A DNA stretch of 64,000 bases, taken from positions 143,995 to 207,994 of the forward strand of contig CBIMES010000001.1 of the NCBI GenBank assembly GCA_966243015.1, in the 5' to 3' direction. Position numbers and translations under genes: made by a program. The stretch is from an uncultured bacterium. Its GTDB lineage: Bacteria > Patescibacteriota > Minisyncoccia > Phycocordibacterales > UBA6065. The notes under the pieces are model-generated. The model did not search any database. It was not told the DNA's origin and was given only the letters and a program-made list of their open reading frames with translations. Every line of letters starts with the position of its first letter. Positions within the stretch are counted from its first letter, which is position 1. This document shows, piece by piece, positions 17,213 to 53,912 of the stretch.

Positions 17213-18073
17213 CTAGATGCAGGCGCAGTAGTCGGTGTCTCCTCCCGAACAGGTGTCAACAGTGTTTGCGGGAATTTGGCACGTTATGTCATAAGGGACA
17301 GCAGCCTTTGTGCAGAAGTTAAATCCTGGCAGGCCACCGATGCCGCCGCCTCCGAACTGGGCGTATGCGCTAGGTATGAGGCTGATTTGAATCGTGCCAT
17401 TCGGAATTGACGCGGTTGAGACGCCGGTGCACGCGTTCGCGAACGATCCGTCCCCGCCCGCTATCCAGCAGCTTGAGGTTGCGGGGCCGTATATGCGGCA
17501 GAACTGGGCGGCGAAGCCCCCGTCCTCTCTGAACACGGCTTTTCCGGGGCCCTCTTCGGCCTCGATATAACTTCCCGTGCTCATGGTGTTCACGCACGAG
17601 GTATAGGGTGCAGGAACGATAGGGCAATAGCTCTTGGCGCTCGCCGCCATGGGCAGGGAGGTCGGGGTGACGAGCTCGGCGCCGAACGCCGCCGACTCGG
17701 CCGCCGCGTCCGCGTAGTACACGTACGAGTCGTCCTTGCTGTTGGGGATTGCCGAGATGTACCCTTCGTTTACGAGCTCCTGCATGCTTGCGTTGAAGGC
17801 CTGGGTGCCCTCGCGGGCGATTGAGTCACCGGTTCCTCCCGCGCAGTACGAGCCGCCGCAGTTGTAGTTCCTCGGCACCTTGCCGGTGGCCGTCTTCTTC
17901 ACAGATATCGCCGTCTCTATCTGGTGCACCTGGCTTTTCTTGCTCGCGTCGTCCGCCTTGGCCCTCGCTGACGCGGTTGAATACATGGCGACGCTCGAGA
18001 TGAGTGACACGATCGAGACTACGACGAGGAGCTCGATGAGGGTGAAGGCCCGATGCGCGGTGTTCGGATTCAT
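17213..18073 (-). CDS. type IV pilin-like protein with prepilin N-terminus and a Cys-rich C-terminal domain
   Basis: N-terminus [27 protein letters not shown] (class III signal, G/A-FTLIE); more than 12 Cys in the C-terminal half. Confidence 0.7.
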   Translation of the reverse strand: MNPNTAHRAFTLIELLVVVSIVSLISSVAMYSTASARAKADDASKKSQVHQIETAISVKKTATGKVPRNYNCGGSYCAGGTGDSIAREGTQAFNASMQELVNEGYISAIPNSKDDSYVYYADAAAESAAFGAELVTPTSLPMAASAKSYCPIVPAPYTSCVNTMSTGSYIEAEEGPGKAVFREDGGFAAQFCRIYGPATSSCWIAGGDGSFANACTGVSTASIPNGTIQISLIPSAYAQFGGGGIGGLPGFNFCTKAAVPYDITCQIPANTVDTCSGGDTDYCACI

Positions 18074-24192: not shown

Positions 24193-25050
24193 CTAGGGGC
24201 GTGCGGCAATCGTGAGCCTCTCCAATCCTTTCGCGTAGATATTCCAGACTTCGGAAGCGACGAGTGTCTTTGCGTATACGCGAACCTCGTCTATGTGGCC
24301 CTGGAAATATTCGCCATCCGAGCAGGCACTTGAACCCGCCTCGGCTCCGATACAGAGAGGGTTGTTTACCGCGTAGTTCACAGGACCATTGGGCGTCGCA
24401 TTTTCCGCAACCTGCTTTCCGTCGAGATAAAGCCTGATTGTATCGCCGTCATAGGTTACGAGCGCGTGATGCCATGTGTTCGGCGATATGCTCGAGATTG
24501 GCGTTTTGGCGGCGTGCCAGGTTCCCCCTACGTTGAGGAGCCCGCACAGGCCGCCCGTTCCGCCGCAAGCCACGGCCTCGTTGATGGCCAGGCTGTATCC
24601 GCCGGTTTGGGACTTGGAGATGATGCGCCTTGGACCGGTGATTGACGAAGCGTTGAACCAGGCCCCGAAGGACACTGCGGACGTTGGGGCGAGTTCGGCG
24701 GAGTGACCGATTGTGACGCGGCCGGTCGATCCATTAAGCTGAAGAGATTGCCCCGTGCCTGAATAGGTATTTGCCGAGGTGACGCTTGCTCCCGTTGAGA
24801 GTGTCCCGTTGTTACCGCCAGCTCCGTTGATCGCAGTCGTTCCCGAATCCGCGTCAAAGTCCCACATGCCGGCGACCTGGTCTCCCATGGTGCGAAACGT
24901 CTGGGCGGAGAACTGCCTCGCCGCGCCGAGGCGCGCTTTCTCGCGCGCCGAGTTGAGGCTCGCGAGGACGATGCTCGAGAGCAGGCCGATGATGGCGATG
25001 ACCACGAGGAGCTCGATGAGGGTGAAGCCCCTGTTCCGATGAGATGTCAT
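24193..25050 (-). CDS. type IV pilin-like protein with a LamG/concanavalin-A-like lectin domain
   Basis: N-terminus [26 protein letters not shown]; LamG-type signatures ([42 protein letters not shown]). Confidence 0.7.
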
Positions 25051-25181: not shown

Positions 25182-26750
25182 TTAGAGATCCCTGAACACC
25201 TCGATCTTCGCGCCGATGGCATTGAGACGATTGGCGAGGTCCTCGTATCCGCGGTTGATGTTGTAGACGTTGCGGAGCACCGACGTTCCCTCGGCCGCGA
25301 GCATGCCGAGCATTATAATCACGGACGGGCGAAGGGCGGGAGGGCAGACAATTTCGGTTGCCTTGAGCTTCGTCGGGCCTTTCACATAGAAGCGGTGCGG
25401 ATCGGCGAGGATGGTCTCGGCACGCATCTTGTCGAGTTCCTTGTAATAGATCGCTCGCTCTTCGTACACCCAGTCGTGGATGAAGGTCTGACCCTCCGCC
25501 TGCGTGCCGATGATGGCGAAGAAGGGGAGGTTGTCCATGTTGATGCCCGGGTATGGTTGAGCGTGAATCTTCTCCTCGAGGGCGACGAGCTTCGACGCGA
25601 AGGTTTGGATGTCGACGAGGTTGGTCTTGCTGTTGTCGGCCTTGTATCGCTTCACGATTTTGTACTTGAACCCCATCTTCTCGAGCTTGAGGAGCTCGAG
25701 CTCGAGGAAGTCGATGGGGCAGCGCTCGATGGTGATTGATGACTTGGTGACGATGGCCGCGGCGAGGAGTGACATTGCCTCGATGGGGTCCTCCGAGAGG
25801 AAATACTCAATGTCCTTCTTCACGCCGTTCTTGCTGCCGTCGATGCCGTGTACGGTCATGGTCGAGGTGCCGATGCCGTCGATCTTCGCGCCGAGGAGCT
25901 CGAGGTAGAAGCAGACGTCCTGGACCTGGTAGTTCGCAGAGGCGAACTTCACGGTCGTGGTGCCGGGGATGAGCGCCGCCGCCATGAGCACGGCCTCGGT
26001 CACGGTGTCTCCCGCCTCGTACATGACGACTTCGCGGTCCTTCTTGAGGCCGTCGTGCGAGACGTGGTAGTACTCTGAGCTGGTCTCGATCTTCACGCCG
26101 AGTTTCTCGAGGGCGTAGACGTACGGCTTGATGGTTCGGGAGCCGAGTCGGCAGCCTGACGCCTGAGGGAGGTCAAACTCCTTCATTCTGTGAATGAGCG
26201 AGCCGACCATCATGATGACGGAACGGGTCTTCGCCGCGGAGTCGTAGGCGATGTCCTTCATGGCGAATTTCTCGGGCGGGGTGATGTGCAGATCTGGGCC
26301 CTTCCATTCGATCTTCACGCCGATGGACTCGAGCACCTCGGCGATGCGGTTTACCTCCTCAATCTTGGGAGTGTTCTTGATGACGGTCGTGCCGCGGTTC
26401 ATGAGCGATGCGCACATGAGGCCGACGGCGCCGTTCTTCGACGTGCGCACCTTGATCGAGCCCGAGAGCTGATGTCCTCCCTCGATGCGGAAGTTGACCG
26501 TGCCACCCTTCGCGAGGGAGACGATCTCCTGGCCGAGCGCCGCCGAGAGCTTGGCGAGGGTCTCGGTCGACAGGTTCTGCTCGCCCTTCTCGATGCGGGC
26601 GATGACGGACTGGGTGGTGCCGATCTTCTCGCCGAGCTCGGTCTGGGTCATGCGCCTGTCCTCGCGGAGGCGGGCGATCATGAGGCCGATAGAGGCGAGG
26701 GCTTCGGCAGGCTTGCTCTCCTTCGCGGTTTTTTTGGTTTTGGTGGGCAT
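25182..26750 (-). CDS. murA: UDP-N-acetylglucosamine 1-carboxyvinyltransferase with an N-terminal HTH (XRE-type) domain
   Basis: ~70-aa N-terminal XRE-like HTH (RMTQTELGEKIGTTQSVIARIEKGEQNLS). A full MurA body follows, with FRIEGGHQLSGSIKV..., the conserved active-site region and the C-terminal NINRGYEDLANRLNAIGAKIE. Start placed at MPTKTKK. Confidence 0.8.
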   Translation of the reverse strand: MPTKTKKTAKESKPAEALASIGLMIARLREDRRMTQTELGEKIGTTQSVIARIEKGEQNLSTETLAKLSAALGQEIVSLAKGGTVNFRIEGGHQLSGSIKVRTSKNGAVGLMCASLMNRGTTVIKNTPKIEEVNRIAEVLESIGVKIEWKGPDLHITPPEKFAMKDIAYDSAAKTRSVIMMVGSLIHRMKEFDLPQASGCRLGSRTIKPYVYALEKLGVKIETSSEYYHVSHDGLKKDREVVMYEAGDTVTEAVLMAAALIPGTTTVKFASANYQVQDVCFYLELLGAKIDGIGTSTMTVHGIDGSKNGVKKDIEYFLSEDPIEAMSLLAAAIVTKSSITIERCPIDFLELELLKLEKMGFKYKIVKRYKADNSKTNLVDIQTFASKLVALEEKIHAQPYPGINMDNLPFFAIIGTQAEGQTFIHDWVYEERAIYYKELDKMRAETILADPHRFYVKGPTKLKATEIVCPPALRPSVIIMLGMLAAEGTSVLRNVYNINRGYEDLANRLNAIGAKIEVFRDL

Positions 26751-27035
26751 GGTTCGGTGCTTATGGGTAAGTGAGAAACAGTATAGCATATATGCTATAC
26801 ATTTAAGACGGTGCTGTGGATAAAAAAGCACGCAGGGGAGGCGTGCTGAGGGGGGTCTATCTTCTTGTGAGGGAGGCGACGATCCAGGCTGCGAGCAGGA
26901 GGGCCAGAAGGCCAGAGACGACGGACGATACGGTGAGGCCCTGCCATTTCCCGGTGTCGCACCCGTGGCTTTCGCTGGTCGATGGGGAGGGGTCGGCGTT
27001 CATTTCATCACCATAGTGCCCCCGTCGTGTCCAGA

Positions 27036-27403: not shown

Positions 27404-28417
27404 ATGGCCATATTTACGAAGAAACTCGGCATTGACCTCGGCACCGCGAACACCCTCGTGTTCATTCCCGGCAAGGGCATCGTCCTCAACGAGCCTTCGG
27501 TGGTCGCTGTGTCCGAACAGGACAACAAGATTCTTGCCGTCGGTGTCGAGGCGAAGAACATGATTGGCCGAACGCCGGAGTCGATCATCGCGTACCGTCC
27601 GATGAAGGACGGCGTCATCGCCGACTATCGCGTGACCGAGGCCATGCTCCGGTACTTTATCGACAAGGCTCTCGGCAAGTGGAACATCTGGAAGCCAGAA
27701 GTCCTCGTGTCCGTTCCCGCGGGCATCACCTCGACCGAGCGACGAGCCGTCGTCGAAGCTGCCGTGAAGGCGGGCGCCAAGAATGCCTATGTGGTCAAGG
27801 AGCCGATCCTCGCCGCCATCGGCGCGGGCATCCCGATTCAGGAGGCGCGCGGCCACATGATCGTCGACATCGGCGGGGGTACGACTGACGTCGCGGTCAT
27901 CTCGCTCGGTGGCATCGTGTCCTCGACTTCGGTCAAGTGCGCCGGCAACAGGATTGACGCCGCCATCGCCGACTACATCAAGAAGACCTTCAACCTCGCC
28001 ATCGGAGACAAGACCGCCGAGAACATCAAGATCCAGATCGGTTCGGCCGTTCCTCTCGAGGAGGAGCTTTCCATGGTCATCAAGGGACGAGACTTCGTCT
28101 CGGGACTGCCGCGCTCGACCGAGCTTAAGTCGAACGAGGTGGTCAAGGCGATCACCCGCGAGCTTCGCGACATGGTGAAGGCGATCAAGGACGTGCTCCA
28201 GGAGACTCCTCCCGAGCTCGCCGCCGACATCATCGACAGCGGCATCATCATGACCGGGGGATCGTCCCAGCTCCGCAACCTTCCCGAGCTCGTCTTCCGT
28301 CGCACCGGCGTGAAGGCCGTCCTCGCCGAGGACCCTCTGTACTGCGTTGCCAAGGGAACCGGCATCGCGCTCGAGCATCTCGAGACGTACAAGAGGACGA
28401 TTATTTCGAAGAGATAA
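27404..28417 (+). CDS. mreB: rod shape-determining actin homologue MreB (paralogue 1)
   Basis: LGIDLGTANTLVF phosphate-1 motif, IVDIGGGTTDVAVIS phosphate-2 and the adenosine motif; 337 aa. Confidence 0.9.
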   Translation: MAIFTKKLGIDLGTANTLVFIPGKGIVLNEPSVVAVSEQDNKILAVGVEAKNMIGRTPESIIAYRPMKDGVIADYRVTEAMLRYFIDKALGKWNIWKPEVLVSVPAGITSTERRAVVEAAVKAGAKNAYVVKEPILAAIGAGIPIQEARGHMIVDIGGGTTDVAVISLGGIVSSTSVKCAGNRIDAAIADYIKKTFNLAIGDKTAENIKIQIGSAVPLEEELSMVIKGRDFVSGLPRSTELKSNEVVKAITRELRDMVKAIKDVLQETPPELAADIIDSGIIMTGGSSQLRNLPELVFRRTGVKAVLAEDPLYCVAKGTGIALEHLETYKRTIISKR

Positions 28418-28760: not shown

Positions 28761-28833
28761 TTTCACTTTGCAAGCACCGTATCGAGGTCCCTGTCTTTGA
28801 TTGAGGATCTTTCTTCTTTGTTATACTGTCACC

Positions 28834-29502
28834 ATGTTCCAGAAAGATTCCCTCCACCACGCGTATTTCATTGAAGGAGAGCGGGCCGCGGTGCTCGCCG
28901 ACATCGAGGCGTTCCTGAGCGAGGCCTTCGGCATCGTGCGCCAGGGTCATCCTGACGTGCATTACGGCGAGTACGATTCGTTCGGCATCGACGACGGCCG
29001 CGGTCTTCAGGAGATGCAGGCGGTGCGGCCTGTGGCGGGTGACAGGAAGGTTTTTATTCTTTCCGTGGGCTCAATGACGGGGGAGGCTCAGAACTCGCTT
29101 CTCAAGGTCTTCGAGGAACCGACGCCGGGCACTCATTTCTTTGTCATTTCGACATCACGCAGGATACTCCTGCCGACCCTGCGCTCGCGCGTCATCATCA
29201 TCGCCCACGCCACCTCGAAGGAGGCGACGCTCGGTGCCGAGGCCAAGAAGTTTATTTCCTCTTCATATAAGGACCGTCTCGCTCAGGTGTCGGGCATGGT
29301 TGAGGAGAAGGACAAGGCGCTCGCCGAGGGATTCCTTCTTGCCGTCATTGACGAGCTGCGCGGTGACGGTTTGCGGGCTGTCTCGCCGGCGCGCGCCGTG
29401 GCGATCAGGGAGATCGTCTCGCTCGTGCCGTATCTCAAGGACCGCGCTCCGTCCGTGAAGCTCATTCTCGAGCGGGTGGCGTTGCTCGACTTTGATAAAT
29501 AA
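28834..29502 (+). CDS. holB: DNA polymerase III delta' subunit-like protein
   Basis: AAA+ clamp-loader-like motifs (GEAQNSLLKVFEEPTPGTHFFVIS, LLPTLRSR); a TATACT -10 box lies 6 nt upstream of the ATG. Confidence 0.7.
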   Translation: MFQKDSLHHAYFIEGERAAVLADIEAFLSEAFGIVRQGHPDVHYGEYDSFGIDDGRGLQEMQAVRPVAGDRKVFILSVGSMTGEAQNSLLKVFEEPTPGTHFFVISTSRRILLPTLRSRVIIIAHATSKEATLGAEAKKFISSSYKDRLAQVSGMVEEKDKALAEGFLLAVIDELRGDGLRAVSPARAVAIREIVSLVPYLKDRAPSVKLILERVALLDFDK

Positions 29503-29539
29503 TTGATTTTTTCCAGGGTCTTGTGGATTGTGCCTGTGA

Positions 29540-29545
29540 TATAAT
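29540..29545 (+). promoter_or_regulatory. extended -10 (TGaTATAAT) 6 nt upstream of the ATG of the giant gene; implies a leaderless transcript
   Basis: ctgTGaTATAATcacgatATG; no Shine-Dalgarno sequence is possible. Confidence 0.35.
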
Positions 29546-29551
29546 CACGAT

Positions 29552-32500
29552 ATGAAATTTAGGGTAGTGTCCTTTGTGCTTGTAGGAGCGTTACTCACAC
29601 TTGCGCCGCTTTTTTCTCATGCGCAGGAAAGGGGAGGCGCCTCTCTCTTCTTCTGCAAGGTGTTTTCGATTTTCACCAAAGCCGACTGTTCTCCGTCGGC
29701 TGATTCTGCCACCGCTGAAATTACCCAAGCCCCGTTGCTGCCGTCTCCGTCGGGCGAGGGGTCTAAGCCTTCCTCTGTCGTAACCAATGTTGCGGATTCG
29801 GATTCCCCGGCACGCGAGGTTTCGTCTGGCGTCGGCCCTTATCCCTCGCTGAGCCGTTCGGACGTTCAATCGATGATCGATTCCTCGATCGAGCGATTGC
29901 CCGCACCCACAACCGTGTCTCCCTCGGAGCCCTCGGTCCAGACGGTTGTCTATCGATCGTCCTCGGCCCAGGGCGACTCTATCGTGAGCGCCTCCGCCCG
30001 CATGGTTTCCGACCTTAGGGCCGACATCCAGGAAGGGAGGGTCTCTGTGCCTCTGTCAGCCGTGTCTGGTCAGTCTTCCGTGCTCTCGGGTGACGCTGAG
30101 CTCGCGAACGCTACCAGCACCACGTTCTTCTCGACCGTCGGGCGCTTTGCGACGGGTGTTGTGGACACCCTGTCCTCGGCGGTTGCGACTATAGCGAGTC
30201 TGTTCGTCGAGAATCTCACTGCCACCAACGCAACGTCTACCAATTCCGTTGTCACGGGAGGCCTGTCTGCCGGTTCCCTCAGCCTCGGCACCGCTCTCGC
30301 GGTGACAAGCGGAGGAACGGGTGCGTCTGACGCGTCTTCCGCGAGACTTAACCTTGGCTTGGCCTATGCCACGTCCTCGGACATATCGGCAACGCTTTTC
30401 AATAACATTGCCACATGGGGAGACAGTCTGACCGCAGGTGCTGGCGGCACACCCTACCCGACGCAGCTTGCCAGTCTTACGGGTGCTACCGTCTATAACG
30501 GGGGCGTCGGTGGCGAGACGAGCACTCAGATAAAGGCCCGAATGCTCGCCGCGACCGACAAACACGCCCATCCGACGATAATTTGGGCAGGAAGGAATAA
30601 TTACAGCTCTCCCGAAACCGTCAAAGCTGACATCGCCGAGATGGTTGCGGCTCTCGGGCACAATAATTATCTGATCATTGGCGTGATCAATGGCAATTAC
30701 CCGAGTGAGTATTCTGGGGGAGCGGGACACACGCTTATAACAAATCTTAACAGCGACCTGTCCGAAACGTATGGCTCCCGTTTCATCGACATGCGTCAGT
30801 ATCTTGTCTCGCTGTACGACTCGGGGATTCCGCAGGACGTTACTGACCATGACAATGACATCGTGCCGAGCTCTCTTCGTTCGGATAGTATCCATTTGAC
30901 CACGGCGGGTTATTTGGCGGTTGCGCAGAGAATATATCAGGATATCAGTGTCCTTAGGTCGGGAGCGACTGGATCGGTTGTAAATCCTCAGACTCTTCAG
31001 TATGCGTTTTCAAACCCGTTTCCCATCGGCGCAACTACTCGCGCCGGGGGTTACTTCAGCCAGGTGGGCGTGGGAACATCGACGCCCGCGCGAGCTCTTT
31101 CCGTTGTGGGCGGCGACGTGGAGATAGATCAATCAAGATTCTATTACGCAAAGGACGCCAGCGGTAACAGTGTGAGGGTCGCCGGTGTCTCGGGAAGCAA
31201 TCTGTTCTTGGGAGGAAGCTATGTCAGCAACCTGTATCTCGGCACGGGGTTCACGGGCCAGTCTCAGGCTCTTACGATTGCGAACGGTGGTTCCGTGGGA
31301 GTCGGAACGACCACTCCTTCTGCGAGGCTTTCCGTGACGGGCGCTGCTGGCAGCGGCGATATTTTCGCTGTTGCCTCGTCAACCAACGCTCGGCTTCTGA
31401 CGGTGACAAGCGCTGGTGCGCTCGGTGTTGGAACGAGTTCGCCCTCCGCACTCCTCTCTGTCTCTGGGTCTTCCGCGTTTGCGGGTCTCGCGACGTTTTC
31501 TTCCAATGTTTTCATGACGGGAGGAAGTCTGTACCTGCAGTCCTCTGGAGCTGGGTTCTATCTTCCCGGAAACGGAGGAATCGCGGGAAATAACGGGGCA
31601 ATCAATCTTACTGCTGCTGGCACTAATCAGAACATCACCCTCACGCCGAGCGGCACGGGAGCTGTTGGAATCGGCACCACCACGCCGTCAGCAAGGCTCG
31701 CCGTAACGGGAACCGCGGGAACGAGTGACATATTCGCGCTCGCGTCCTCGACGAACGCGAGGGTCCTCACGGTCAATAGCGCTGGAAACAGCTTCTTCGG
31801 TGGCAACATCTCGGCGACCGGAACTATTGCCTCAAACATGGGTTCTGGGAACGGACAGGCGCTCACGGTTATCACAGACGGAAGTACGAGGTATGCGAAC
31901 CTTGCCTTCAACGAGGTTGCGTCCAACAAGGCTTTGATTTCATGGATTGGTTCTGGCGCTGGGCTGGGCGCTCGAAACAACACCCTCGAGCTTGCGGCCG
32001 AGAATTCGGGTAGCGACATAGCGTTCAGGACTGGCGGGGCAACTAAAATGATCCTTACTGACGGTGGCCTGCTAGGCATAGGAACCACGACGCCGTCGAC
32101 CGCACTCGATGTGGTGGGTGTGGTGAACGCGTCTGGAGGTTACACCTATAACACGTCTAGCAGCGGATCGGGACTTACCGTGAACACCACGGCGAATACG
32201 ACATACAACAACATATCCTTCACCGAGAACTCGTCGCTTCGATCGCTCATATCGTGGATCGGCTCGAACGCGGGCCTCGGGACGAGGAACAACACCCTTG
32301 AGCTTTCCGCGGAGGCGTCTGGAGGTGATATAGCGCTCCGCGCGGGAAACGCGACGAGGCTGTTCGTGGACGCTGGTGGAAACGTTGGCGTGGGCACGCT
32401 CACCCCAGGGGCGAAGCTCGACGTGGGTGGATCGGTCAAGGCGACGTCATACGCGCGAGGTGTAGCGACCACGACGTCGCAGCTCGTGTTTGACGGAGAC

Positions 32501-32719
32501 TCTATGACCTTCGGATACGGCCTCACCACCCCATACCCGAACCTGGTAACCACGACCCATACGTTCAGCAGGTACAACACCGCTGTCTCTGGCCGAACCG
32601 TTCTCGACATGATACTCAACGCGACGACCAGCGTTGACGCAAGACTCTCCGACAGGGCCCGCGAGAACATCGTGGTCGTATGGGGGGGGGAATCAACAGT
32701 ATGGCGCTCGAGGGAATAA
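29552..32719 (+). CDS. giant secreted SGNH-esterase / tail-fibre-repeat protein, N-terminal 1,055 codons (frame interrupted in a G9 tract)
   Basis: Signal peptide; Ser/Pro-rich linker; SGNH domain 1 (block I NIATWGDSLTAGAGG, block V DSIHLT); at least five V/LG[IV]GTTTPSARLxVTG repeats; start of SGNH domain 2 (FDGDSMTFGYG). Terminates 29 nt after a G9 run. Confidence 0.8.
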   Translation: MKFRVVSFVLVGALLTLAPLFSHAQERGGASLFFCKVFSIFTKADCSPSADSATAEITQAPLLPSPSGEGSKPSSVVTNVADSDSPAREVSSGVGPYPSLSRSDVQSMIDSSIERLPAPTTVSPSEPSVQTVVYRSSSAQGDSIVSASARMVSDLRADIQEGRVSVPLSAVSGQSSVLSGDAELANATSTTFFSTVGRFATGVVDTLSSAVATIASLFVENLTATNATSTNSVVTGGLSAGSLSLGTALAVTSGGTGASDASSARLNLGLAYATSSDISATLFNNIATWGDSLTAGAGGTPYPTQLASLTGATVYNGGVGGETSTQIKARMLAATDKHAHPTIIWAGRNNYSSPETVKADIAEMVAALGHNNYLIIGVINGNYPSEYSGGAGHTLITNLNSDLSETYGSRFIDMRQYLVSLYDSGIPQDVTDHDNDIVPSSLRSDSIHLTTAGYLAVAQRIYQDISVLRSGATGSVVNPQTLQYAFSNPFPIGATTRAGGYFSQVGVGTSTPARALSVVGGDVEIDQSRFYYAKDASGNSVRVAGVSGSNLFLGGSYVSNLYLGTGFTGQSQALTIANGGSVGVGTTTPSARLSVTGAAGSGDIFAVASSTNARLLTVTSAGALGVGTSSPSALLSVSGSSAFAGLATFSSNVFMTGGSLYLQSSGAGFYLPGNGGIAGNNGAINLTAAGTNQNITLTPSGTGAVGIGTTTPSARLAVTGTAGTSDIFALASSTNARVLTVNSAGNSFFGGNISATGTIASNMGSGNGQALTVITDGSTRYANLAFNEVASNKALISWIGSGAGLGARNNTLELAAENSGSDIAFRTGGATKMILTDGGLLGIGTTTPSTALDVVGVVNASGGYTYNTSSSGSGLTVNTTANTTYNNISFTENSSLRSLISWIGSNAGLGTRNNTLELSAEASGGDIALRAGNATRLFVDAGGNVGVGTLTPGAKLDVGGSVKATSYARGVATTTSQLVFDGDSMTFGYGLTTPYPNLVTTTHTFSRYNTAVSGRTVLDMILNATTSVDARLSDRARENIVVVWGGESTVWRSRE

Positions 32720-34098
32720 CGCCGGTCGCAACGTATAACGAGCTGGTGGCGTATGCTCGAGAGCGAAGGGCGGCGGGATTCAAGGTGATCATAGGCACGA
32801 TGGTCTCTCGAACTGGCTCAAACGGCAACGGAACGTTCGACTCGCAGAAGAACACCTACAACGCGCTCATCAGGGCGAATTGGGCAAATTTCGCCGACGG
32901 CATAGCCGACCTCGCTGGCGATGCACGCCTCGGGGCAGACGGTGCGTACTCTAACTTGACGTATTTCCAGGCGGACGGAATTCATATCAATGACACGGGT
33001 GCGGCAATAGTGGCGGGAATCGTATCTACGGCGATTGATCGCCTGACGGAGGGGAACGTGAAGGACCTGAACGACCTGTACGTCACTGGGAAGATGGGTA
33101 TCGGCACGACGTCTCTATCTGAAAAGCTCTCTGTCGCTGGTAACATAATTGTTACCAACGGTTCACGAATATACGGCTTTGATTCGTCTGGTAATAAGGC
33201 TGTCATAGCTCAGATTGCCGCCGGGCTGAACGATCTCTATCTCGGCGGTAGCTACGTTGGCAACCTGTATCTTGGTACGGGTGCGGGGACTCAAAGGGTG
33301 ACTGTCACCAACGGCGGAAACGTTGGTATCGGCACCACCACCCCTTCCGCCCAGCTCACCACTTCGGGCACCGTCCGCTTCGCCTCGCTTGGCTCTGCGG
33401 GCGCGAACCTCATCACGGACTCGCTCGGCAACGTCACTGTTTCCTCTGACGAGAGGCTTAAGGACGTGCAGGGGGAATTCGCGAGGGGCCTCAGCGACAT
33501 TTCCAAGATTAAGCCGATCACGTACAAGTGGAACGCCGTGTCGGGCATGGAGACCTCCGGTCTCTATACGGGATTCTCTGCTCAGAACGTGCAGTCATCC
33601 ATACCCGAGGCAGTCGCGACAGACTCGCGAGGGTACCTTACCCTTTCCGACAGGCCGATTCTGGCGGCGGTCGTCAACGCCCTCAAGGAGCTTTCGGCAA
33701 AGGTTGACGGCATCATGTCCTCGAATTTCACCTATGTGAACGAGGCGTCGATCGGCGTCCTCAACGTCGGCAAGCTTAACATCCAGGGCGACATCTGCGT
33801 CGATAACGTGTGTATCACGAAAGAGCAGTTCAAGAGCATCTTCACGCAGAACGGCTCGACGGTGTACATGCCTCAGCCTGTGCAGGATACGTCTTCAGAG
33901 GCAGAGGGCCTCGTTCCCACCGAGACCGCCTCGAGCACCTCGGACGTTCCGGATACGTCGAGCGCGTCTTCGACGTCCGAGGAGGCGCCTTCCTCGGTCG
34001 ACGCCGAGGTCGCGTCTTCGACGCCTCCTGCGGAGGAGGTCGTTTCAGGGGATTCTGAGCCCCAGGAATCCGAGACCCCGGGCGCGCCCGTTGAATAA
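32680..34098 (+). CDS. giant secreted protein, C-terminal 472 codons (continuation in the -1 frame)
   Basis: Rest of SGNH domain 2 (GGINS block III-like, DGIHINDTG block V); more GIGTT repeats. Then the phage tail-spike intramolecular-chaperone (Peptidase_S74-like) domain (SSDERLKDVQGEF...ITYKWN...GFSAQNVQSSIPEAV...ILAAVVNALKELSAKVDG) and an S/T/E-rich tail. Confidence 0.8.
   Translation: MGGGINSMALEGITPVATYNELVAYARERRAAGFKVIIGTMVSRTGSNGNGTFDSQKNTYNALIRANWANFADGIADLAGDARLGADGAYSNLTYFQADGIHINDTGAAIVAGIVSTAIDRLTEGNVKDLNDLYVTGKMGIGTTSLSEKLSVAGNIIVTNGSRIYGFDSSGNKAVIAQIAAGLNDLYLGGSYVGNLYLGTGAGTQRVTVTNGGNVGIGTTTPSAQLTTSGTVRFASLGSAGANLITDSLGNVTVSSDERLKDVQGEFARGLSDISKIKPITYKWNAVSGMETSGLYTGFSAQNVQSSIPEAVATDSRGYLTLSDRPILAAVVNALKELSAKVDGIMSSNFTYVNEASIGVLNVGKLNIQGDICVDNVCITKEQFKSIFTQNGSTVYMPQPVQDTSSEAEGLVPTETASSTSDVPDTSSASSTSEEAPSSVDAEVASSTPPAEEVVSGDSEPQESETPGAPVE
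32682..32690 (+). repeat. G9 homopolymeric tract at the frame break of the giant gene
   Basis: tatGGGGGGGGGaatc; G7 or G10 would restore a single ORF reading VVVWGG(G)INSMALEG. Confidence 0.9.
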
Positions 34099-34107
34099 GA
34101 AGGTCTC

Positions 34108-34689
34108 ATGAATACTCAGAAAGGATTCACCCTCATCGAGCTCCTCGTCGTCATTGCCATCATCGCGCTTCTCTCGAGCGTGGTTTTATCGTCTCTTAAT
34201 ACGGCTCGCGCTAAATCCCGCGACGCGTTGCGCATGTCCCAGATGAATCAAGTGATGAGCGCCCTCGAGATGTATTACGCCAAATACGGCTCATACCCCT
34301 ATGGAAACAGTGGCTCGCTTAATACCGAGGGCGCGAGGAATAATTCGTGCAATAATGCGGGGTCGAGCCTGGGTGAGCCGATGGGCGAGTGGGATAACGT
34401 GATGCAGCTCCTCGTGAACGAGGGGTTCTTGGGCGGCATTCCGCGCGATCCGATCAATACGGGCTATGCGAGCACAGGGAACAGCAGGTGCTACAAGTAT
34501 TCCTCCTACACGGCTGATGACGGCCTGTACAGGCGCTGCAGCACAAACGCGGTCGGCGACAGGGATATCCCTATACGCAACTACGGCTACGTCCTTATGT
34601 TCTCCTCCGAGGCAACAACCTTCAAATACCCGCTTTCTGGTTGGCCAGTCAACATCTATACGTATTGCGTTCTTGGCCCTGCAAAATAG
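34108..34689 (+). CDS. type IV pilin-like protein
   Basis: N-terminus [24 protein letters not shown]; 193 aa; 10 nt downstream of the giant gene. Confidence 0.7.
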   Translation: MNTQKGFTLIELLVVIAIIALLSSVVLSSLNTARAKSRDALRMSQMNQVMSALEMYYAKYGSYPYGNSGSLNTEGARNNSCNNAGSSLGEPMGEWDNVMQLLVNEGFLGGIPRDPINTGYASTGNSRCYKYSSYTADDGLYRRCSTNAVGDRDIPIRNYGYVLMFSSEATTFKYPLSGWPVNIYTYCVLGPAK

Positions 34690-34736
34690 GGGGGAAATCT
34701 ATATGGGGAAGGGGTTTTATGCTATTATCTGCTCAT

Positions 34737-39563: not shown

Positions 39564-40109
39564 TTAGTAACTTGACGATGATCCGGTTCCTCCGGCGTCT
39601 GCCTCGCAGAGTACTCCGTTGGTTCCCGTGTTCGTCAGCGTACTTCCTCCGGGGCAGCTGGTCGCGTTTGCTATGGTGAAATAGATGGTCGCGCGGGTGC
39701 ACCTTCCCGAGGATACCGTGTTGCAGAAATAAAGCGGTCCGGCGTACGACTGGCCCGAGATGGTTACGGTCGGGTTGGTCGACGCCCTGCGTACGTAAGT
39801 TGTCGTAAGCGAGGAGAGGTCGCCCGCGGTGCTTGGGGCAAGGGTTGTCCCCGCAAAGGAGCAGTTGTTGTTGCCGAGGCAGTGGTATGACTGGTTCCCT
39901 GGGTAAGGGAAGTTGCCCGAATCGGTGGTGAACATCTGCACCGCGGTCTGGAGGGACCTTTTCTCGGCGAGCACTTTCGCGTTTGCCGCCCTGGCGCGCG
40001 CCGTGTTCACGCTCGACAGTACTACGCTCGAGAGGAGGGAGATGATCGAGATGACGACGAGGAGCTCGATGAGGGTGAAGCCTCTGGCCCTGCTTCCGTG
40101 TGTGTTCAT
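39564..40109 (-). CDS. type IV pilin-like protein
   Basis: N-terminus [28 protein letters not shown]; two Cys pairs in the C-terminal domain. Confidence 0.7.
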   Translation of the reverse strand: MNTHGSRARGFTLIELLVVISIISLLSSVVLSSVNTARARAANAKVLAEKRSLQTAVQMFTTDSGNFPYPGNQSYHCLGNNNCSFAGTTLAPSTAGDLSSLTTTYVRRASTNPTVTISGQSYAGPLYFCNTVSSGRCTRATIYFTIANATSCPGGSTLTNTGTNGVLCEADAGGTGSSSSY

Positions 40110-41877: not shown

Positions 41878-42942
41878 ATGATCAAGAAACTCACAGACCG
41901 CCTCTACAACGCCTTCTCCCACGACATCGGCATCGACCTCGGTACCGCCAACACGCTTGTCTACGTGAAGGGGCAGGGCATCGTCATCAACGAGCCGTCG
42001 GTCGTCGCCGTGAACCAGAAGACGGGTCGCGTGGTTGCCGTCGGCTCTCAGGCAAAGGACATGCTCGGCAGGACACCCGCCCACATCGCCGCCGTACGAC
42101 CGCTCGTCGAGGGCGTGATCTCGGATTTCGAGATCGCCGAGGAGATGCTCGTGTACCTCCTCAACAAGTCGCAGAAGGAGACCAAGAAGTTCTTCGGGCC
42201 GCGCGTCATCGTCGGCATTCCCTCGGGCGTGACGAACGTCGAGGCGCGCGCCGTCCGTGACGCGACCAAGAACGCCGGCGCGCGCGAGGTTCACGTCGTC
42301 GAGCAGCCGATGGCCGCTGCAATCGGCATCAAGCTCCCTATCCATGACCCGGCGGGAAACATGGTCATCGACATCGGCGGAGGCACCACCGACATCGCCG
42401 TCATCTCGCTCGGCGGCGTGGTGCGCTCGAAGTCGCTCAAGATCGCCGGTGACCGCCTCAACAACGACATCATTTCGTACATCAGGAACGAGTTCAAGAT
42501 CCTCATCGGCGAGAAGACCGCCGAGGAGATCAAAATCGCCATCGGCGTGGTCGTGCCCGGCCAGGTTCCTCACGAGGCGCCGATCAGGGGCCGTGACCTT
42601 GTCACGGGCCTTCCGCGCGAGGTGGTCCTCACTGACTCTGACATCCGCGAGGCTGTCAGCCAGTCGATCGAGAACCTCGTCGAATCCGTCAGGGAGGTGC
42701 TCGAGACCATGCCTCCCGAGATTCTCGCCGACGTCATGCATCGCGGCATCTGGCTCGTGGGCGGAGGCGCCCTGATCCGCGGCCTCGACCACCTCATCGA
42801 GGAGAGCGTGAAGATTCCCGTTCACATCGCCGATGATCCTCTCACCGCCGTCGCGCGAGGCGCGGGCATCATTCTCGAGGATGTGGAGAGGTTCGCCGAT
42901 GTTCTTATACAAAACGAAGATGACCTACCTAAGGCGCAGTAA
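41878..42942 (+). CDS. mreB: rod shape-determining protein MreB (paralogue 2, in the mreBCD-pbp2 operon)
   Basis: IGIDLGTANTLVYV and VIDIGGGTTDIAVIS motifs. Confidence 0.9.
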   Translation: MIKKLTDRLYNAFSHDIGIDLGTANTLVYVKGQGIVINEPSVVAVNQKTGRVVAVGSQAKDMLGRTPAHIAAVRPLVEGVISDFEIAEEMLVYLLNKSQKETKKFFGPRVIVGIPSGVTNVEARAVRDATKNAGAREVHVVEQPMAAAIGIKLPIHDPAGNMVIDIGGGTTDIAVISLGGVVRSKSLKIAGDRLNNDIISYIRNEFKILIGEKTAEEIKIAIGVVVPGQVPHEAPIRGRDLVTGLPREVVLTDSDIREAVSQSIENLVESVREVLETMPPEILADVMHRGIWLVGGGALIRGLDHLIEESVKIPVHIADDPLTAVARGAGIILEDVERFADVLIQNEDDLPKAQ

Positions 42943-43726
42943 CGTACAGATCAAGAGGAACCGCAGGCTTACCATGCTCGCGGGTGGCGCCGTCGCGCTC
43001 GTCTTTGCCGTGCACGTTGCCTTCCCGAACCTTTACGCGGGACTTCTCTCGCCGGTGACCTCGACCATATGGAAATCGGAGTCGACGACTCTCAAGGGCG
43101 TGAGCCGCCTCGCGTCCCTCGTGCGCTCCAAATACTCTCTCGTCGTCGAGAACGAGGGTCTTCGCCGTGAGATAGCCTCGCGCGACGCGAGCGCGCTTCT
43201 GCTCGACACGGTTAAGAAGGAGAACGGGGAGCTCAAGACGCTCCTGGGCCGCGAGCACGCGGGTCGGGACGTGCTCGGCCTCGTGCTCTCTCGTCCGCCG
43301 CTCACGTTCTACGACACGCTCATCGTTGACGTCGGCACGTCCGACGGCATTGCCATCGGCGACAAGGTATACGCCCAGGGCGAGGTGCTCATCGGCGACG
43401 TGTCCGAGGTCTTCGCCAAAACCGCCCGCGTCAGTCTCTTCTCGACCCCAGGCAGGGCGTTGCAGGTGGTCATGGGATCGTCCACGGTCCAGGCCCAGGC
43501 GACGGGCAGGGGAGGCGGCAATTTCGAGGCCCGCCTCCCGGTCGACGTGAAGGTCGCCGAGGGCGACGTCATCACCTTCCCGCACATTCGCTCGCACGTC
43601 TTCGGCGTCGTCGAGAAGATTATCGTCGACTCGACCGACTCACTTCAGACCATCCTCTTCAAGGCACCCGTCAACATGCACGAGCTGCGCTTCGTCGAGG
43701 TGGAGACGGACTCGAGCGTCCGATAG
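42899..43726 (+). CDS. mreC: rod shape-determining protein MreC
   Basis: N-terminal TM, coiled coil (LVVENEGLRREIAS) and C-terminal beta domain (GDKVYAQGEVLIGDV); GGAGAGG lies 8 nt upstream of ATG 42899; alternative start at 42920. Confidence 0.7.
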   Translation: MFLYKTKMTYLRRSNVQIKRNRRLTMLAGGAVALVFAVHVAFPNLYAGLLSPVTSTIWKSESTTLKGVSRLASLVRSKYSLVVENEGLRREIASRDASALLLDTVKKENGELKTLLGREHAGRDVLGLVLSRPPLTFYDTLIVDVGTSDGIAIGDKVYAQGEVLIGDVSEVFAKTARVSLFSTPGRALQVVMGSSTVQAQATGRGGGNFEARLPVDVKVAEGDVITFPHIRSHVFGVVEKIIVDSTDSLQTILFKAPVNMHELRFVEVETDSSVR

Positions 43727-43750
43727 GTCGCCCCCCCCAATTTCAATATC

Positions 43751-43999
43751 ATGAGACTACTTTTCAACATCATCCTCGTCGTCTCGATCCTCTTTATGCC
43801 GTGGTGGGTGACTGCCGCTGTTATTCTCGCGTCCTGCGCCCTCGTGCCGCGCTTCTATGAGGCCATGGTGTACGGTATTGTCATTGATGCTCTGTACGCG
43901 ACGCCTGCCGGCTTTCACGGCTTTGCGTACGTTTGGACCGCCTTTTCCGTCGCCGTCTTCCTCGTGGCGGGCTTCCTCAGGAGCAGGCTCTCTTGGTAA
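43751..43999 (+). CDS. mreD: putative MreD-like small membrane protein
   Basis: 82 aa with three hydrophobic helices, positioned between mreC and pbp2. Confidence 0.45.
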   Translation: MRLLFNIILVVSILFMPWWVTAAVILASCALVPRFYEAMVYGIVIDALYATPAGFHGFAYVWTAFSVAVFLVAGFLRSRLSW

Positions 44000-44008
44000 G
44001 ATACCCGC

Positions 44009-45709
44009 ATGAACATGAAGAAGAGGACGACCATTGACCCAGACGAGATCTTCCTCGACTCAGAGAACCTGCCTGATTTTGACGTGCATCAGTTCGAGGG
44101 TCGCATCGAGAAACCCATATCCCTCTTCTCGATTATCATCCTCTCGTCCTTCTTCGTCGTGCTCCTGCTTGTGCTCGTCGGCAAGGCCTGGGCCCTGCAG
44201 GTGAGGGAGGGCGACACTTACGCCCAGATGAGCGAAAGCAACATGATGCGCCAGACCCTTATCTTCTCGGAGCGCGGGGCGATCACCGACCGCAACGGCG
44301 TGAAGCTCGCCTGGAACGCGATCAATCCAGACAACTCGGACTTCTCGCTCAGGGCGTACACGGCGGACAAAGGGTTCTCGCACCTGCTGGGGTATCTCCG
44401 CTATCCGGCCAAGGACAAGCAGGGCTTTTACTACCGCAACCATTTCGAGGGGGTGTCCGGTATCGAGAAGGAGTACAACGACGAGCTTCAGGGCGAGCAC
44501 GGTCTGAAAATCGTGGAGGTAGACGCTCTCGGCAAGACTGACGCGGAGTCGACCATCAGGCCGGCCCGCGACGGCCAGAACATCACGCTGTCGATTGACG
44601 CTCCGCTCCAGGGGAAGCTGTACGAGGCCATCAGCGGCCTCGCGCAGCGCGTCGGCTTCACCGGGGGCGCGGGCGCTATCATGGACGTGCACACGGGTGA
44701 GGTCATCGCCCTCACGAGCTATCCCGAGTACTCGAGCCAGGTAATGACGGACGGAAAGAATCAGGATCTCATCGCGGACTATCTCACCGACAGCGTGAAC
44801 AAGCCGTTTCTCAACCGTATCGTCTCGGGCCTCTATACCCCCGGATCGATCGTGAAGCCATACGTAGCCATCGCCGCCCTCGAGGAGGACGTCATCAGTC
44901 CGAACAAGACCATTCTCAGCACCGGTTCGATCAGCGTGCCGAATCCCTACGACCCAACGAGGAAGACGGTATTCATGGACTGGAAGGCCCACGGACAGGT
45001 GGACATGCGCAAGGCGATTGCGGTCTCGTCGAACGTCTACTTCTACGAGGTGGGAGGAGGCTTTGAGGATCAGCCTGGCCTCGGCATCTCGCGTCTCAAC
45101 AAGTACTTCAGCATGTTTGGCCTCGGCAAGCCGACCACGGGAGGTATCTTCGAGGGTCCCGCCGGCACGATTCCGTCGCCCGAGTGGAAAGAGAGAGTTT
45201 TCCCGGGAGACCCGTGGCGCATCGGAGACACGTACTTTACGTCGATCGGACAGTATGGCTTCCAGGTCACGCCGCTACAGATGCTGCGCGCCGTCTCGGC
45301 GATCGCCAACGGTGGCACCCTGCTGCAGCCGACTGTCCTCAAGCAGACGGGCCTCACTATCGCGGGAGGCGAGAAGCTGCCACTCGACCCAGCGAACATC
45401 AAGGTGGCTCGGGAGGGAATGAGGCAGGGAGCTCTCATTGGAAGCGCGAGCGGACTAAACGTGCCGTACGTCCAAATCGCCGCAAAGACAGGTACCGCCG
45501 AGCTCGGAGTCTCCAAGGCCTTCGTGAACTCGTGGGTCGAGGGATTCTTCCCGTACGAGAATCCGCGGTACGCCTTCGTCATCATGATGGAACGGGGTCC
45601 GAGGGCAAATCTCTACGGAGCGACTGCCGCCATGCGCGAGGTCGTTGACTGGATGCATCTCAATGGCTCGCCGTACCTTTCCAGTACGTCAACTTCCGTG
45701 TCGCAGTAG
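44009..45709 (+). CDS. mrdA: penicillin-binding protein 2 (elongasome transpeptidase)
   Basis: SxxK (GSIVKP), SxN (SSNVYF) and KTG (KTGTAE) motifs; TM anchor; operon context. Confidence 0.85.
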   Translation: MNMKKRTTIDPDEIFLDSENLPDFDVHQFEGRIEKPISLFSIIILSSFFVVLLLVLVGKAWALQVREGDTYAQMSESNMMRQTLIFSERGAITDRNGVKLAWNAINPDNSDFSLRAYTADKGFSHLLGYLRYPAKDKQGFYYRNHFEGVSGIEKEYNDELQGEHGLKIVEVDALGKTDAESTIRPARDGQNITLSIDAPLQGKLYEAISGLAQRVGFTGGAGAIMDVHTGEVIALTSYPEYSSQVMTDGKNQDLIADYLTDSVNKPFLNRIVSGLYTPGSIVKPYVAIAALEEDVISPNKTILSTGSISVPNPYDPTRKTVFMDWKAHGQVDMRKAIAVSSNVYFYEVGGGFEDQPGLGISRLNKYFSMFGLGKPTTGGIFEGPAGTIPSPEWKERVFPGDPWRIGDTYFTSIGQYGFQVTPLQMLRAVSAIANGGTLLQPTVLKQTGLTIAGGEKLPLDPANIKVAREGMRQGALIGSASGLNVPYVQIAAKTGTAELGVSKAFVNSWVEGFFPYENPRYAFVIMMERGPRANLYGATAAMREVVDWMHLNGSPYLSSTSTSVSQ

Positions 45710-48931: not shown

Positions 48932-49026
48932 TGTGGTGTCGTGATAAACGGTTGTAAAAATGTGGATAAAAATGTTTGATTGTGGGAACGGGTGTTATAA
49001 AATGTTATGTAAGTGGGAAGAAGTGG
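48932..49026 (+). promoter_or_regulatory. array of five phased (T)GTGG(G) boxes; candidate MraZ operator and dcw promoter
   Basis: GTGG begins at 48933, 48962, 48982, 49013 and 49023; the spacings 29/20/31/10 nt are multiples of about one helical turn; directly upstream of mraZ. Confidence 0.5.
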
Positions 49027-49054
49027 TAAATCAAATTTTCCCGCGAGAACAGCA

Positions 49055-49489
49055 ATGCTTATCGGAGAGTACACACACTCCATAGACGACAAGAACCGAA
49101 TCTCTCTCCCGGCGAAATTCAGGGAGAAGATGGGGAAGAAGGTGGTTGTGACTCCTGGTCTCGATCACTGTCTTTTCGTGTTCACACCGAAGGAGTGGGA
49201 GAAGATCTCCGAGAAGCTGTCTGAGGCATCGATCGGACAGTCTGACAGCCGAAGCTTCAGCCGATTCATGTTCGGAGGCGCCGTCGAGGCGGACATCGAC
49301 TCGATTGGGCGCATCCTGATCCCGGAGTTTCTCCAGGGCTGGGCTTCCCTCAAGGGCAAGGTTGCCGTTGTCGGAGTCCAGTCCCGCGTCGAGCTCTGGA
49401 ACGACAAGGCATGGGCGGCGTACAAGAAGGGCGTCGAGGGCAAGGCGGGAGCCCTCGCCGAGAAGCTCGGCCAGGTTGGAGTCATCTAA
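49055..49489 (+). CDS. mraZ: transcriptional regulator MraZ
   Basis: Duplicated SpoVT/AbrB-like halves with DxxxR motifs (SIDDKNRISLP and ADIDSIGRILIP); start at MLIGEY. Confidence 0.85.
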   Translation: MLIGEYTHSIDDKNRISLPAKFREKMGKKVVVTPGLDHCLFVFTPKEWEKISEKLSEASIGQSDSRSFSRFMFGGAVEADIDSIGRILIPEFLQGWASLKGKVAVVGVQSRVELWNDKAWAAYKKGVEGKAGALAEKLGQVGVI

Positions 49490-49495
49490 TCGGCA

Positions 49496-50395: not shown

Positions 50396-50413
50396 AAATA
50401 ACTTTAGAAACAC

Positions 50414-50731
50414 ATGACACAGTACGTACAGGAGAAGGTCGCATACATGGAGAGGCCGGTGACCGCCTGGGCCCTCGCCGGCATGATCGCCGCCCTCGTT
50501 CTCTCGTACGCGTACTTCGTCAACGCCGCGATCGTGAACATCGTGGCGACCAAGGACATGCAGGTTCAGATTTCCGAGCTCACCTCTGAGGTCGGTAACC
50601 TCGAGGCGGAGTATCTTGCCGCGAAGTCGGCCCTCACCCTCGATGAGGCCCGCTCGCTCGGATTCGTCTCGTCGACCTCGGACGCGTCGTACATCACCAA
50701 GACGTCCTTCTCGCTCTCGTTTAACCGCTAA
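50414..50731 (+). CDS. ftsL: FtsL-like cell division protein
   Basis: 105 aa with one TM helix plus a coiled coil; position between rsmH and ftsI. Confidence 0.5.
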   Translation: MTQYVQEKVAYMERPVTAWALAGMIAALVLSYAYFVNAAIVNIVATKDMQVQISELTSEVGNLEAEYLAAKSALTLDEARSLGFVSSTSDASYITKTSFSLSFNR

Positions 50732-50746
50732 CCCCTCCTGACGGTC

Positions 50747-52465: not shown

Positions 52466-52477
52466 TCACTTCCGCGT

Positions 52478-53797: not shown

Positions 53798-53912
53798 TCT
53801 CGCCCTGCGTTTGACGCCACTTCGTCGCGGCTGTTTACAGAATGTTGTCTCGGTGGTAGTTTGCAGATGAATCTGATCGTCTGAAACCACAACTACACAG
53901 GAGAAACACACC

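Follow-up and report, generated by a model that had tools for sequence, protein, structure and literature searches.

A poly-G tract splits a fibre gene inside its second SGNH domain in a Patescibacteria genome

The window analysed here, a 64-kb stretch of contig CBIMES010000001.1 from an uncultured bacterium, carries a gene for a putative secreted fibre that is interrupted by a run of nine guanines (G9) within its second SGNH esterase domain (SGNH2). The two annotated genes that meet at this run are, from their sequence, one ancestral gene split by the tract. Independent short-read assemblies of the same strain carry eight guanines (G8) at the same position, a length that is also out of frame, and show no other insertion or deletion relative to the window. 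The explanation favoured here, at about even confidence, is a real slipped-strand frameshift that represents an opportunistic, recent knock-out of an accessory fibre gene rather than an evolved and maintained switch.

The window reads ATGGGGGGGGGAATCAACAG at 32680-32699, and the nine-G run, the longest homopolymer in the 64 kb, occupies 32682-32690. An open reading frame (ORF) of 1055 aa in frame 2 (29552-32719) enters the tract from upstream and has the C-terminus ...ENIVVVWGGESTVWRSRE, directly followed by a stop codon. The ORF that continues downstream, of 472 aa in frame 1 (32680-34098), has the N-terminus MGGGINSMALEG. The open stretches of the two frames share only 32638-32716, with the tract inside this overlap, and the handover from frame 2 to frame 1 falls exactly at G9, inside SGNH2. 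When the run length was replaced in silico, a single ORF of 1514-1516 aa was restored only by G7, G10 and G13, the G7 and G10 products having 1514 and 1515 aa. G8 and G11 lead to a stop after 1061 and 1062 aa, and G6, G9 and G12 to a stop after 1054-1056 aa, so that translation ends 9-15 codons past the tract in the G8 and G9 states. The G8 product (1061 aa) ends in ...VVVWGGNQQYGARGNNAGRNV before its stop and is accompanied by an ORF of 465 aa, for which the ATG at 32701 is called as the start. The in-frame junction stretch would read ENIVVVWGG(G)INSMALEGITPVATYNELVAYAR, and the predicted in-frame junction peptide is ENIVVVWGGINSMALEGITPVATYNELVAYAR. Both parts are open (1046 and 468 codons), all SGNH and S74 motifs are kept, and there is no further lesion. 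Two antisense ORFs over the tract (32146-32670 and 32616-32855) were dismissed as ordinary shadow ORFs of high-GC DNA. The features of the gene and its immediate surroundings are as follows.

29552..32681, + strand: 5' part of the gene, in frame 2, with signal peptide, SGNH1, fibre repeats and the first 40% of SGNH2
29552-29626, + strand: signal peptide
About 30413-30934, + strand: SGNH domain 1 (SGNH1)
Within the 5' part, + strand: fibre repeats, made of GxGTTTPSAxL modules
About 32495 to about 33006, + strand: SGNH domain 2 (SGNH2), interrupted by the tract
32489-32515, + strand: SGNH2 block I, FDGDSMTFG (catalytic Ser), 5' of the tract
32582-32599, + strand: SGNH2 block II, AVSGRT, 5' of the tract
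32682..32690, + strand: poly-G tract, G9 in the window and G8 in seven other samples, in frame only as G7 or G10
32686-32700, + strand: SGNH2 block III, GGINS, in the downstream half
32691..34098, + strand: 3' part of the gene, in frame 1, with the rest of SGNH2, fibre repeats, Peptidase_S74 and the tail
32701..32703, + strand: internal ATG, the start chosen by gene callers for the 465-aa ORF in G8 contigs
32717..32719, + strand: premature stop of the G9 state (TAA)
Ending at window position 32738, + strand: premature stop of the G8 state (TAA)
32968-32994, + strand: SGNH2 block V, QADGIHIND (Asp/His), in the downstream half
33445-33615, + strand: Peptidase_S74 intramolecular chaperone, starting with SDERLK (33445-33462)
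33868-34095, + strand: acidic tail rich in Ser, Glu and Pro
34108..34689, + strand: pilin-like gene with an N-terminal methylation motif, 9 nt 3' of the fibre gene

A sequence-only reading of this DNA had proposed that G9 splits a giant gene exactly within its second SGNH domain, and the sequence, the ORFs and the two Pfam halves agree on this point. The Lipase_GDSL_2 profile is matched at positions 3-71 upstream of the tract and at 85-177 downstream of it; the upstream stump scores about 21 bits and the downstream part 18 bits, each short of the gathering score of 32.9. Rejoined, SGNH2 reaches 50.3 bits in the G7 version and 46.1 bits in the G10 version. Blocks I, II, III and V, which together in one domain above the Pfam cut-off define an SGNH/GDSL member, are therefore united only after frame repair, and the coordinates match the earlier placement of blocks I and II upstream and of blocks III (GGINS) and V downstream. 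The same holds for the proposal that G7 or G10 would restore reading: either length yields in silico one ORF of 1514 or 1515 aa whose SGNH2 passes Pfam. The start codon at 29552 is also called in the independent contigs.

The rejoined protein consists, in order, of a signal peptide, SGNH1, fibre repeats, SGNH2, further fibre and the Peptidase_S74 chaperone; on the fused protein, Pfam reports two Lipase_GDSL_2 (SGNH) matches and one Peptidase_S74. The latter (PF13884, 36.8 bits against a cut-off of 22) bears out the earlier assignment of a chaperone to the C-terminal part and places the protein among the Peptidase_S74 fibres, autocleavage being predicted only. The C-terminal domain also aligns to a solved phage tail fibre, chain 8jov. 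Phage proteins use the S74 domain as a chaperone for folding the fibre ahead of it into a trimer, after which the domain is released by self-cleavage (PMC8326128). SGNH and S74 are combined in one polypeptide in more than 70 homologues (850-2500 aa), named examples of which come from Candidatus Paceibacterota, Nomurabacteria and Kaiserbacteria. The solved SGNH hydrolase PDB 9kr0_A aligns over the junction without a gap, and L001, L003 and L004 (SGNH proteins from Acidobacteria metagenome-assembled genomes, MAGs), L005 and a fragment from the Joint Genome Institute (JGI) collection (P0001) are all continuous across it. A single-sequence AlphaFold model of the repaired SGNH2 had a pLDDT of 36 and was not used.

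Contigs of the same strain were retrieved through exact copies of neighbour proteins (MreB, pilin, a penicillin-binding protein and a dehydrogenase) from ENA SPAdes assemblies (ERZ2739xxxx) and Logan assemblies (SRR168170xx); all are consensus sequences with 2-9x coverage. They are 99.96-100% identical to the window and jointly cover 791-62465 (61.7 kb). In 286.6 kb of alignment there are 16 mismatches, and the sole kind of indel is one G fewer in the tract. G8 is found in all seven samples that span the tract (ERZ27393765, ERZ27394141, ERZ27394172, SRR16817056, -57, -59 and -64), and the genomes that differ in tract length are otherwise identical over 10-21 kb. The 465-aa split product occurs in eleven contigs, including three of the four long (0.2-1 Mb) contigs with the neighbouring genes; the fourth is the window's own source. 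In a collection of about 15 billion proteins, the G8 products (Logan, ENA; longest contig 483,095 bp) and the G9 products (NCBI, ENA; one contig of 493,814 bp) are present, the full-length G7 and G10 products are absent by exact look-up, and the 90%-identity clusters hold nothing beyond the G8 and G9 products. All 12 assemblies are thus out of frame, at two lengths, and no in-frame (ON) allele was found among them or in the protein collection.

Other homopolymers served as controls. The intergenic C8 run at 43731-43738 is unchanged in four other samples, and no assembly differs in its A7 and T7 runs, so that a general homopolymer problem of the window can be discounted. An exact contig look-up with the window's 1055-aa and 472-aa products gave no match, and a scan of JGI metagenomes with exact flanks and a variable number of G gave 0 matches. 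A degenerate DNA pattern for VVWGGINSM had two matches, both by chance and without homology to the fibre. A G-to-A single-nucleotide polymorphism (SNP) at 35628 is common to contigs of two samples, L031 (ERZ27394105) and L034 (SRR16817054), and shows real micro-diversity in an otherwise near-clonal population. The first 33 nt of the SPAdes contigs L035 and L051 have no counterpart in the window and are probably contig-end artefacts; L035 starts about 140 nt 3' of the tract.

The length of the tract in the intact ancestor can be approached through the homologues. The G7 spacing (VVWGGINS) is matched by SGNH1 (IIWAGRNN), P0001 (VVWAGAAD) and L001 (WIFGGTND), and also by L003 and L004 (VFAGTND, VFLGTND) and L005. 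The G10 product is the sole row of eight with a residue in the extra column of the alignment (A1), and Pfam favours G7 over G10 by 4 bits. The most likely in-frame ancestor, from these comparisons, would be G7, read as TGG GGG GGA (Trp-Gly-Gly), and since the homologues fit the G7 spacing, a history from G7 through G8 to G9 is likely. In L043, the nearest SGNH2 homologue, the tract is interrupted (TGGGCTGGA): its DNA reads GTC GTA TGG GCT GGA GCC, and that of the window with G7 would read GTC GTA TGG GGG GGA ATC. Trp-Gly-Gly needs one GGG codon only, and G7 arises in this way without selection; GGG makes up 11% of the glycine codons.

A scan of GTDB genomes found no close relative of SGNH2, the best being Acidobacteria MAG proteins with 37% identity. 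A protein search with the junction region listed only the fragment P0001; as the same search missed a 465-aa cluster known to be present, this is weak evidence. The nearest relatives of SGNH2 are thus these Acidobacteria MAG proteins (37%) and the JGI fragment (50%), not the fibre family of the Candidate Phyla Radiation (CPR). SGNH2 (32495-33006) appears to be a module that was inserted into the fibre gene recently.

Composition accounts for the run itself. The spectrum of G runs in the window comprises 42 runs of five, four of six, none of seven or eight and one of nine, and G9 is the sole G run above six; the only other homopolymer of at least eight in the window is C8. Under a first-order Markov model, G/C runs of at least six are about fourfold depleted (7 observed against 30.6 expected), runs of at least eight are not depleted (2 against 2.15), and 0.51 runs of at least nine are expected. 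Matches to G8 numbered 3, compared with a mean of 3.07 in dinucleotide shuffles. Because runs of at least eight are as frequent as composition predicts, the run by itself is unremarkable. What is beyond chance is that the tract coincides exactly with a frame change inside a domain that the homologues read through continuously. The two long runs, G9 and C8, are exceptions in a genome that otherwise avoids G/C runs of at least six. C8 is located in the 25 nt that separate the stop codon of mreC (43726) from an ORF (start at 43752) for an 82-aa membrane protein, which has an mreD-like position just 5' of pbp2; the run could influence translation initiation there.

The positional orthologue of the fibre gene, P0006 (1138 aa; L042 8001-11417, GCA_002838085.1), lies 5' of frr, rseP and an amine-oxidase gene. 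Identity to this genome is 83% for the ribosome recycling factor (RRF), 81% for the M50 protein and 61-78% for the fibre C-terminus. The orthologue is intact and has neither the SGNH2 module nor any G/C run of at least six, which speaks against a maintained switch. According to the sequence-only reading, uniformly intact orthologues without a homopolymer at this position would argue against its proposal; this is partly the case, as the positional orthologue is intact and free of a homopolymer because the whole SGNH2 module is missing from it, and L043 has TGG GCT GGA at this site.

Other relatives differ further in this region. In the window, the interval between holB (DNA polymerase III delta') and frr (RRF), at 28801-34719, holds the fibre and pilin genes. 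L055 (ProRS 88% identical; interval at 1-1336) has the 3' end of a fibre gene at the contig edge, directly 5' of frr, with the holB side off the contig. The fibre gene is missing from the holB-frr interval in L056 and L057 (ProRS 86% and 80%), which have nothing there (L056, 2238-3475) or a Band_7 gene (L057, 1-2468). On this comparative evidence, the fibre gene is best described as an accessory, fast-changing surface gene in a variable slot, and SGNH2 as its lineage-specific addition. The locus documents rapid turnover of a fibre gene among close relatives: the gain of a module, a frameshift, and a holB-frr interval that contains the gene in some genomes and not in others. The GC content shifts among these relatives with housekeeping proteins of 80-88% identity, from 58% in the window to 48% in L042; it is 53-54% in L055 and L056 and 58% in L057.

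The favoured explanation can be set out as a series of steps. The product of the ancestral gene would have been a trimeric, secreted fibre (~1514 aa) that carried two SGNH esterase modules and, at its C-terminus, a self-cleaving chaperone. A change from GCT to GGG (Ala to Gly) would have made the G7 run by chance, and slippage might then have lengthened it to G8, and to G9 in one lineage or assembly; the sampled population would accordingly have a G8 consensus, and this assembly G9. The truncated product would be without SGNH2 blocks III and V, the distal fibre and the chaperone, leaving the fibre effectively off: because half of SGNH2, the distal fibre and the S74 chaperone are missing from it, a folded trimeric fibre should not form. 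The loss of fibre function is predicted by analogy with the known role of S74 chaperones. Slippage by a single base, from G8 to G7 or from G9 to G10, could repair the gene, and the site would therefore act like a contingency locus. We infer both this reversibility and the lack of maintenance by selection. As expected of a recent pseudogene, the ORF is broken, relative to intact homologues, in all sampled genomes. Additional degenerative lesions, a further mark of pseudogenes, are absent, which is uninformative at about 1 SNP per 18 kb.

Several points weigh against the knock-out as just described. That genomes identical in all else differ between two OFF lengths implies frequent slippage, of the kind known from true contingency loci; in Bifidobacterium breve, too, the pilus genes are mostly OFF, with two tract lengths co-dominant and the ON length enriched only in vivo (PMC9187656). 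The halves are free of lesions and keep their catalytic motifs, but the diversity is too low for decay to show yet. G9 comes from a single assembly and could be a consensus error; ENA and Logan may share read sets, in which case seven samples may overstate independence; and in consensus data a minority of ON cells would be invisible.

A maintained phase-variation switch, in which slippage would toggle the fibre between ON (G7 or G10) and OFF (G8 or G9) and an ON minority would be selected for host attachment, is a candidate explanation, though less likely than the knock-out. The earlier proposal of a slippage switch stands insofar as tract length differs (G9 and G8) between genomes identical over 10-21 kb, but neither a working ON/OFF state nor an in-frame allele was seen. 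Eight to nine G are at or above the phase-variable lengths in Campylobacter and Neisseria (PMC8355987, PMC5084427), and the tract is the sole coding G/C run of at least seven in a genome fourfold depleted of runs of at least six. Its gene encodes a secreted fibre beside a pilin gene, both gene halves are intact, and mostly-OFF pilus genes with an intragenic G tract provide a precedent. Against this, the reading frame is intact in 0 of 12 assemblies and the protein collection has no exact ON product, the tract is not conserved (TGGGCTGGA in the nearest homologue, no module in the orthologue), G7 arises trivially from the Trp-Gly-Gly codons, the gene is dispensable in near relatives, and a run of such length is expected from composition alone. 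Phase-variable loci are recognized by a homopolymer above about 7-8 G/C in an ORF or promoter, which is present here (G9 and G8, coding), and by length polymorphism among identical genomes, also present, the G9 allele being from one assembly. They further show both ON and OFF lengths in the population, where only OFF was found (12 of 12, at the consensus level), and a tract kept in orthologues, which is not the case in L042 and L043. Because both the co-occurrence of ON and OFF and the conservation of the tract fail, the locus is not classed as an established contingency locus, although it works like one. As a tentative picture only, a CPR episymbiont would be toggling an esterase-bearing attachment fibre resembling a phage tail fibre, with the switch in a recently acquired SGNH module and resting mostly at two OFF lengths.

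Three further explanations were considered. An artefact, in which the gene is intact in the cells (as G7 or G10) and the G8 and G9 calls are both homopolymer errors, is improbable. In its favour, database entries cannot be relied on for homopolymer length and Illumina chemistry is disturbed by G tracts (PMC9187656), contig coverage is low (2-9x), and two lengths are reported for one strain; yet G8 was obtained with two assemblers and in at least seven samples, the other homopolymers (A7, T7 and C8) are constant over 61.7 kb, and an identical error of one (from G7) or two (from G10) would have to recur in every assembly. A simple assembly error hiding G7 or G10, which the sequence-only reading had offered as its own alternative, is accordingly disfavoured: since the independent assemblies are also out of frame, with no other indel over 61.7 kb, and the G7 and G10 products are absent, an intact gene concealed in this manner is unlikely. 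Recoding, by which RNA-polymerase slippage or ribosomal frameshifting (+1 on G8, -1 on G9) would yield the full-length protein, is hardly probable either. Recoding of such kind has been reviewed (PMC5009743). Eight to nine identical bases are long enough for an entire RNA:DNA hybrid, G GGG GGG qualifies formally as a slippery heptamer, and both halves are intact. However, the A-site codons (AAT and GAA) are neither stop nor rare, the two alleles need opposite shift directions, and there is no downstream stimulatory structure, the RNA folding no better than shuffles (z = -0.31 and -0.22). The site and its motif are not conserved in homologues, so that both a fixed conserved slippery motif and a stimulatory element, the marks of programmed frameshifting or slippage, are lacking. 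Productive transcriptional slippage is documented mostly on A/T runs. Very improbable is the existence of two separate functional genes, for a 1055-aa secreted esterase-fibre and for a 465/472-aa protein with its own start codon. Gene callers do annotate two, and the ATG at 32701 lies 10 nt past the G run, which could mimic a Shine-Dalgarno sequence and might serve as a ribosome-binding site. Nevertheless, the split cuts through the centre of a compact SGNH fold, with the Ser nucleophile upstream and Asn, Asp and His downstream; the downstream product would have no signal peptide, no promoter-like site was found (a promoter scan stayed at background level), and all homologues are single ORFs.

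The closest analogue among known systems is provided by the sortase-dependent pilus genes of B. breve UCC2003 (bbr_0113a/b and bbr_1889a/b; PMC9187656). There, too, a poly-G tract divides the first gene of a surface-appendage locus, which the reference genome shows as an 'a' and a 'b' ORF; the dominant tract lengths are not in frame, the fusion needs slippage, and the organism is a high-GC non-pathogen. In contrast to the tract described here, which is G8 or G9, is not conserved in homologues and has no ON length seen, the B. breve tracts are G10-G12 and conserved across Bifidobacterium species, with length heterogeneity and in-vivo ON enrichment measured by error-corrected sequencing (PMC9187656). 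The contingency loci of Campylobacter jejuni and Neisseria meningitidis (hmbR, hpuA, and capsule and lipooligosaccharide genes; PMC8355987, PMC5084427, PMC3786947) share the mechanism of slipped-strand mispairing, and in these loci as well a coding homopolymer of at least 7-8 G/C frameshifts a surface-related gene. They are, however, many per genome and conserved between strains, with ON and OFF among isolates, whereas there is one coding tract in the 64 kb analysed, in OFF states only.

In near-clonal Bordetella pertussis, tract-length changes are reported to be among the few differences between genomes and can toggle or permanently inactivate genes; that study concerns cultured isolates and other gene classes, unlike the present case (PMC1891110). 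Phage tail spikes and fibres with PF13884 (endosialidase endoNF, the T5 L-shaped tail fibre and GA-1 gp12; PMC8326128) carry the domain after beta-rich fibre repeats. The protein described here resembles them in its PF13884 match, the SDERLK start motif and the alignment to 8jov. It differs from them in having a signal peptide and two SGNH esterase modules, and its gene belongs to the chromosome of a CPR bacterium, where its neighbours are holB, mreB, frr and rseP instead of phage genes. A hypervariable 9-mer repeat gene is known from Gracilibacterium (PMC6851277), and no report of homopolymer phase variation in CPR bacteria was found in the literature searches made.

Nearly all knowledge of Patescibacteria comes from metagenomes, and little is understood of their surface biology. 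If the switch were real, the CPR/Patescibacteria would gain a simple, testable mechanism for varying a host-contact structure, and the locus could be the first example of homopolymer phase variation in CPR bacteria. In annotation pipelines, this single 1514-aa fibre gene comes out as two 'genes' (1055/1061 aa and 472/465 aa). Comparison of a MAG with independent assemblies of the same strain can separate assembly error from real homopolymer polymorphism even without reads.

The surroundings of the fibre gene are those of a bacterial chromosome, with priA, an HTH-murA fusion, mreB, holB, frr, rseP, proS and mreBCD-pbp2, as well as an asnS/aspS-type tRNA synthetase gene, mraZ-rsmH-ftsI-murE and two tRNAs; no phage genes were seen in the window. 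The nearest named ProRS homologues (73-78% identity) belong to Candidatus Paceibacterota, the Patescibacteria group and Taylorbacteria, and their names suggest that the organism is a CPR bacterium of Paceibacterota type. The window encodes two MreB paralogues (27404-28417 and the 41878-45709 region) together with MreC, an MreD-like ORF and PBP2, and the dcw cluster (mraZ, rsmH, ftsI, murE) lies at about 49000-53800; the Mre proteins, PBP2 and the dcw cluster constitute a full rod-shape machinery in a CPR genome. MurA (EPSP_synthase fold; 25182-26831, - strand) is fused in one ORF to an N-terminal HTH_3 (Cro/C1-type) domain, and the 522-aa HTH_3-MurA product is called identically in independent contigs. 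Pilin-like genes with an N-terminal methylation motif are found at 17213-18073 (-), 24193-25050 (-), 34108-34689 (+) and 39564-40109 (-). One of them carries a Laminin_G_3 domain, and one lies directly 3' of the fibre gene, with which it is possibly co-transcribed.

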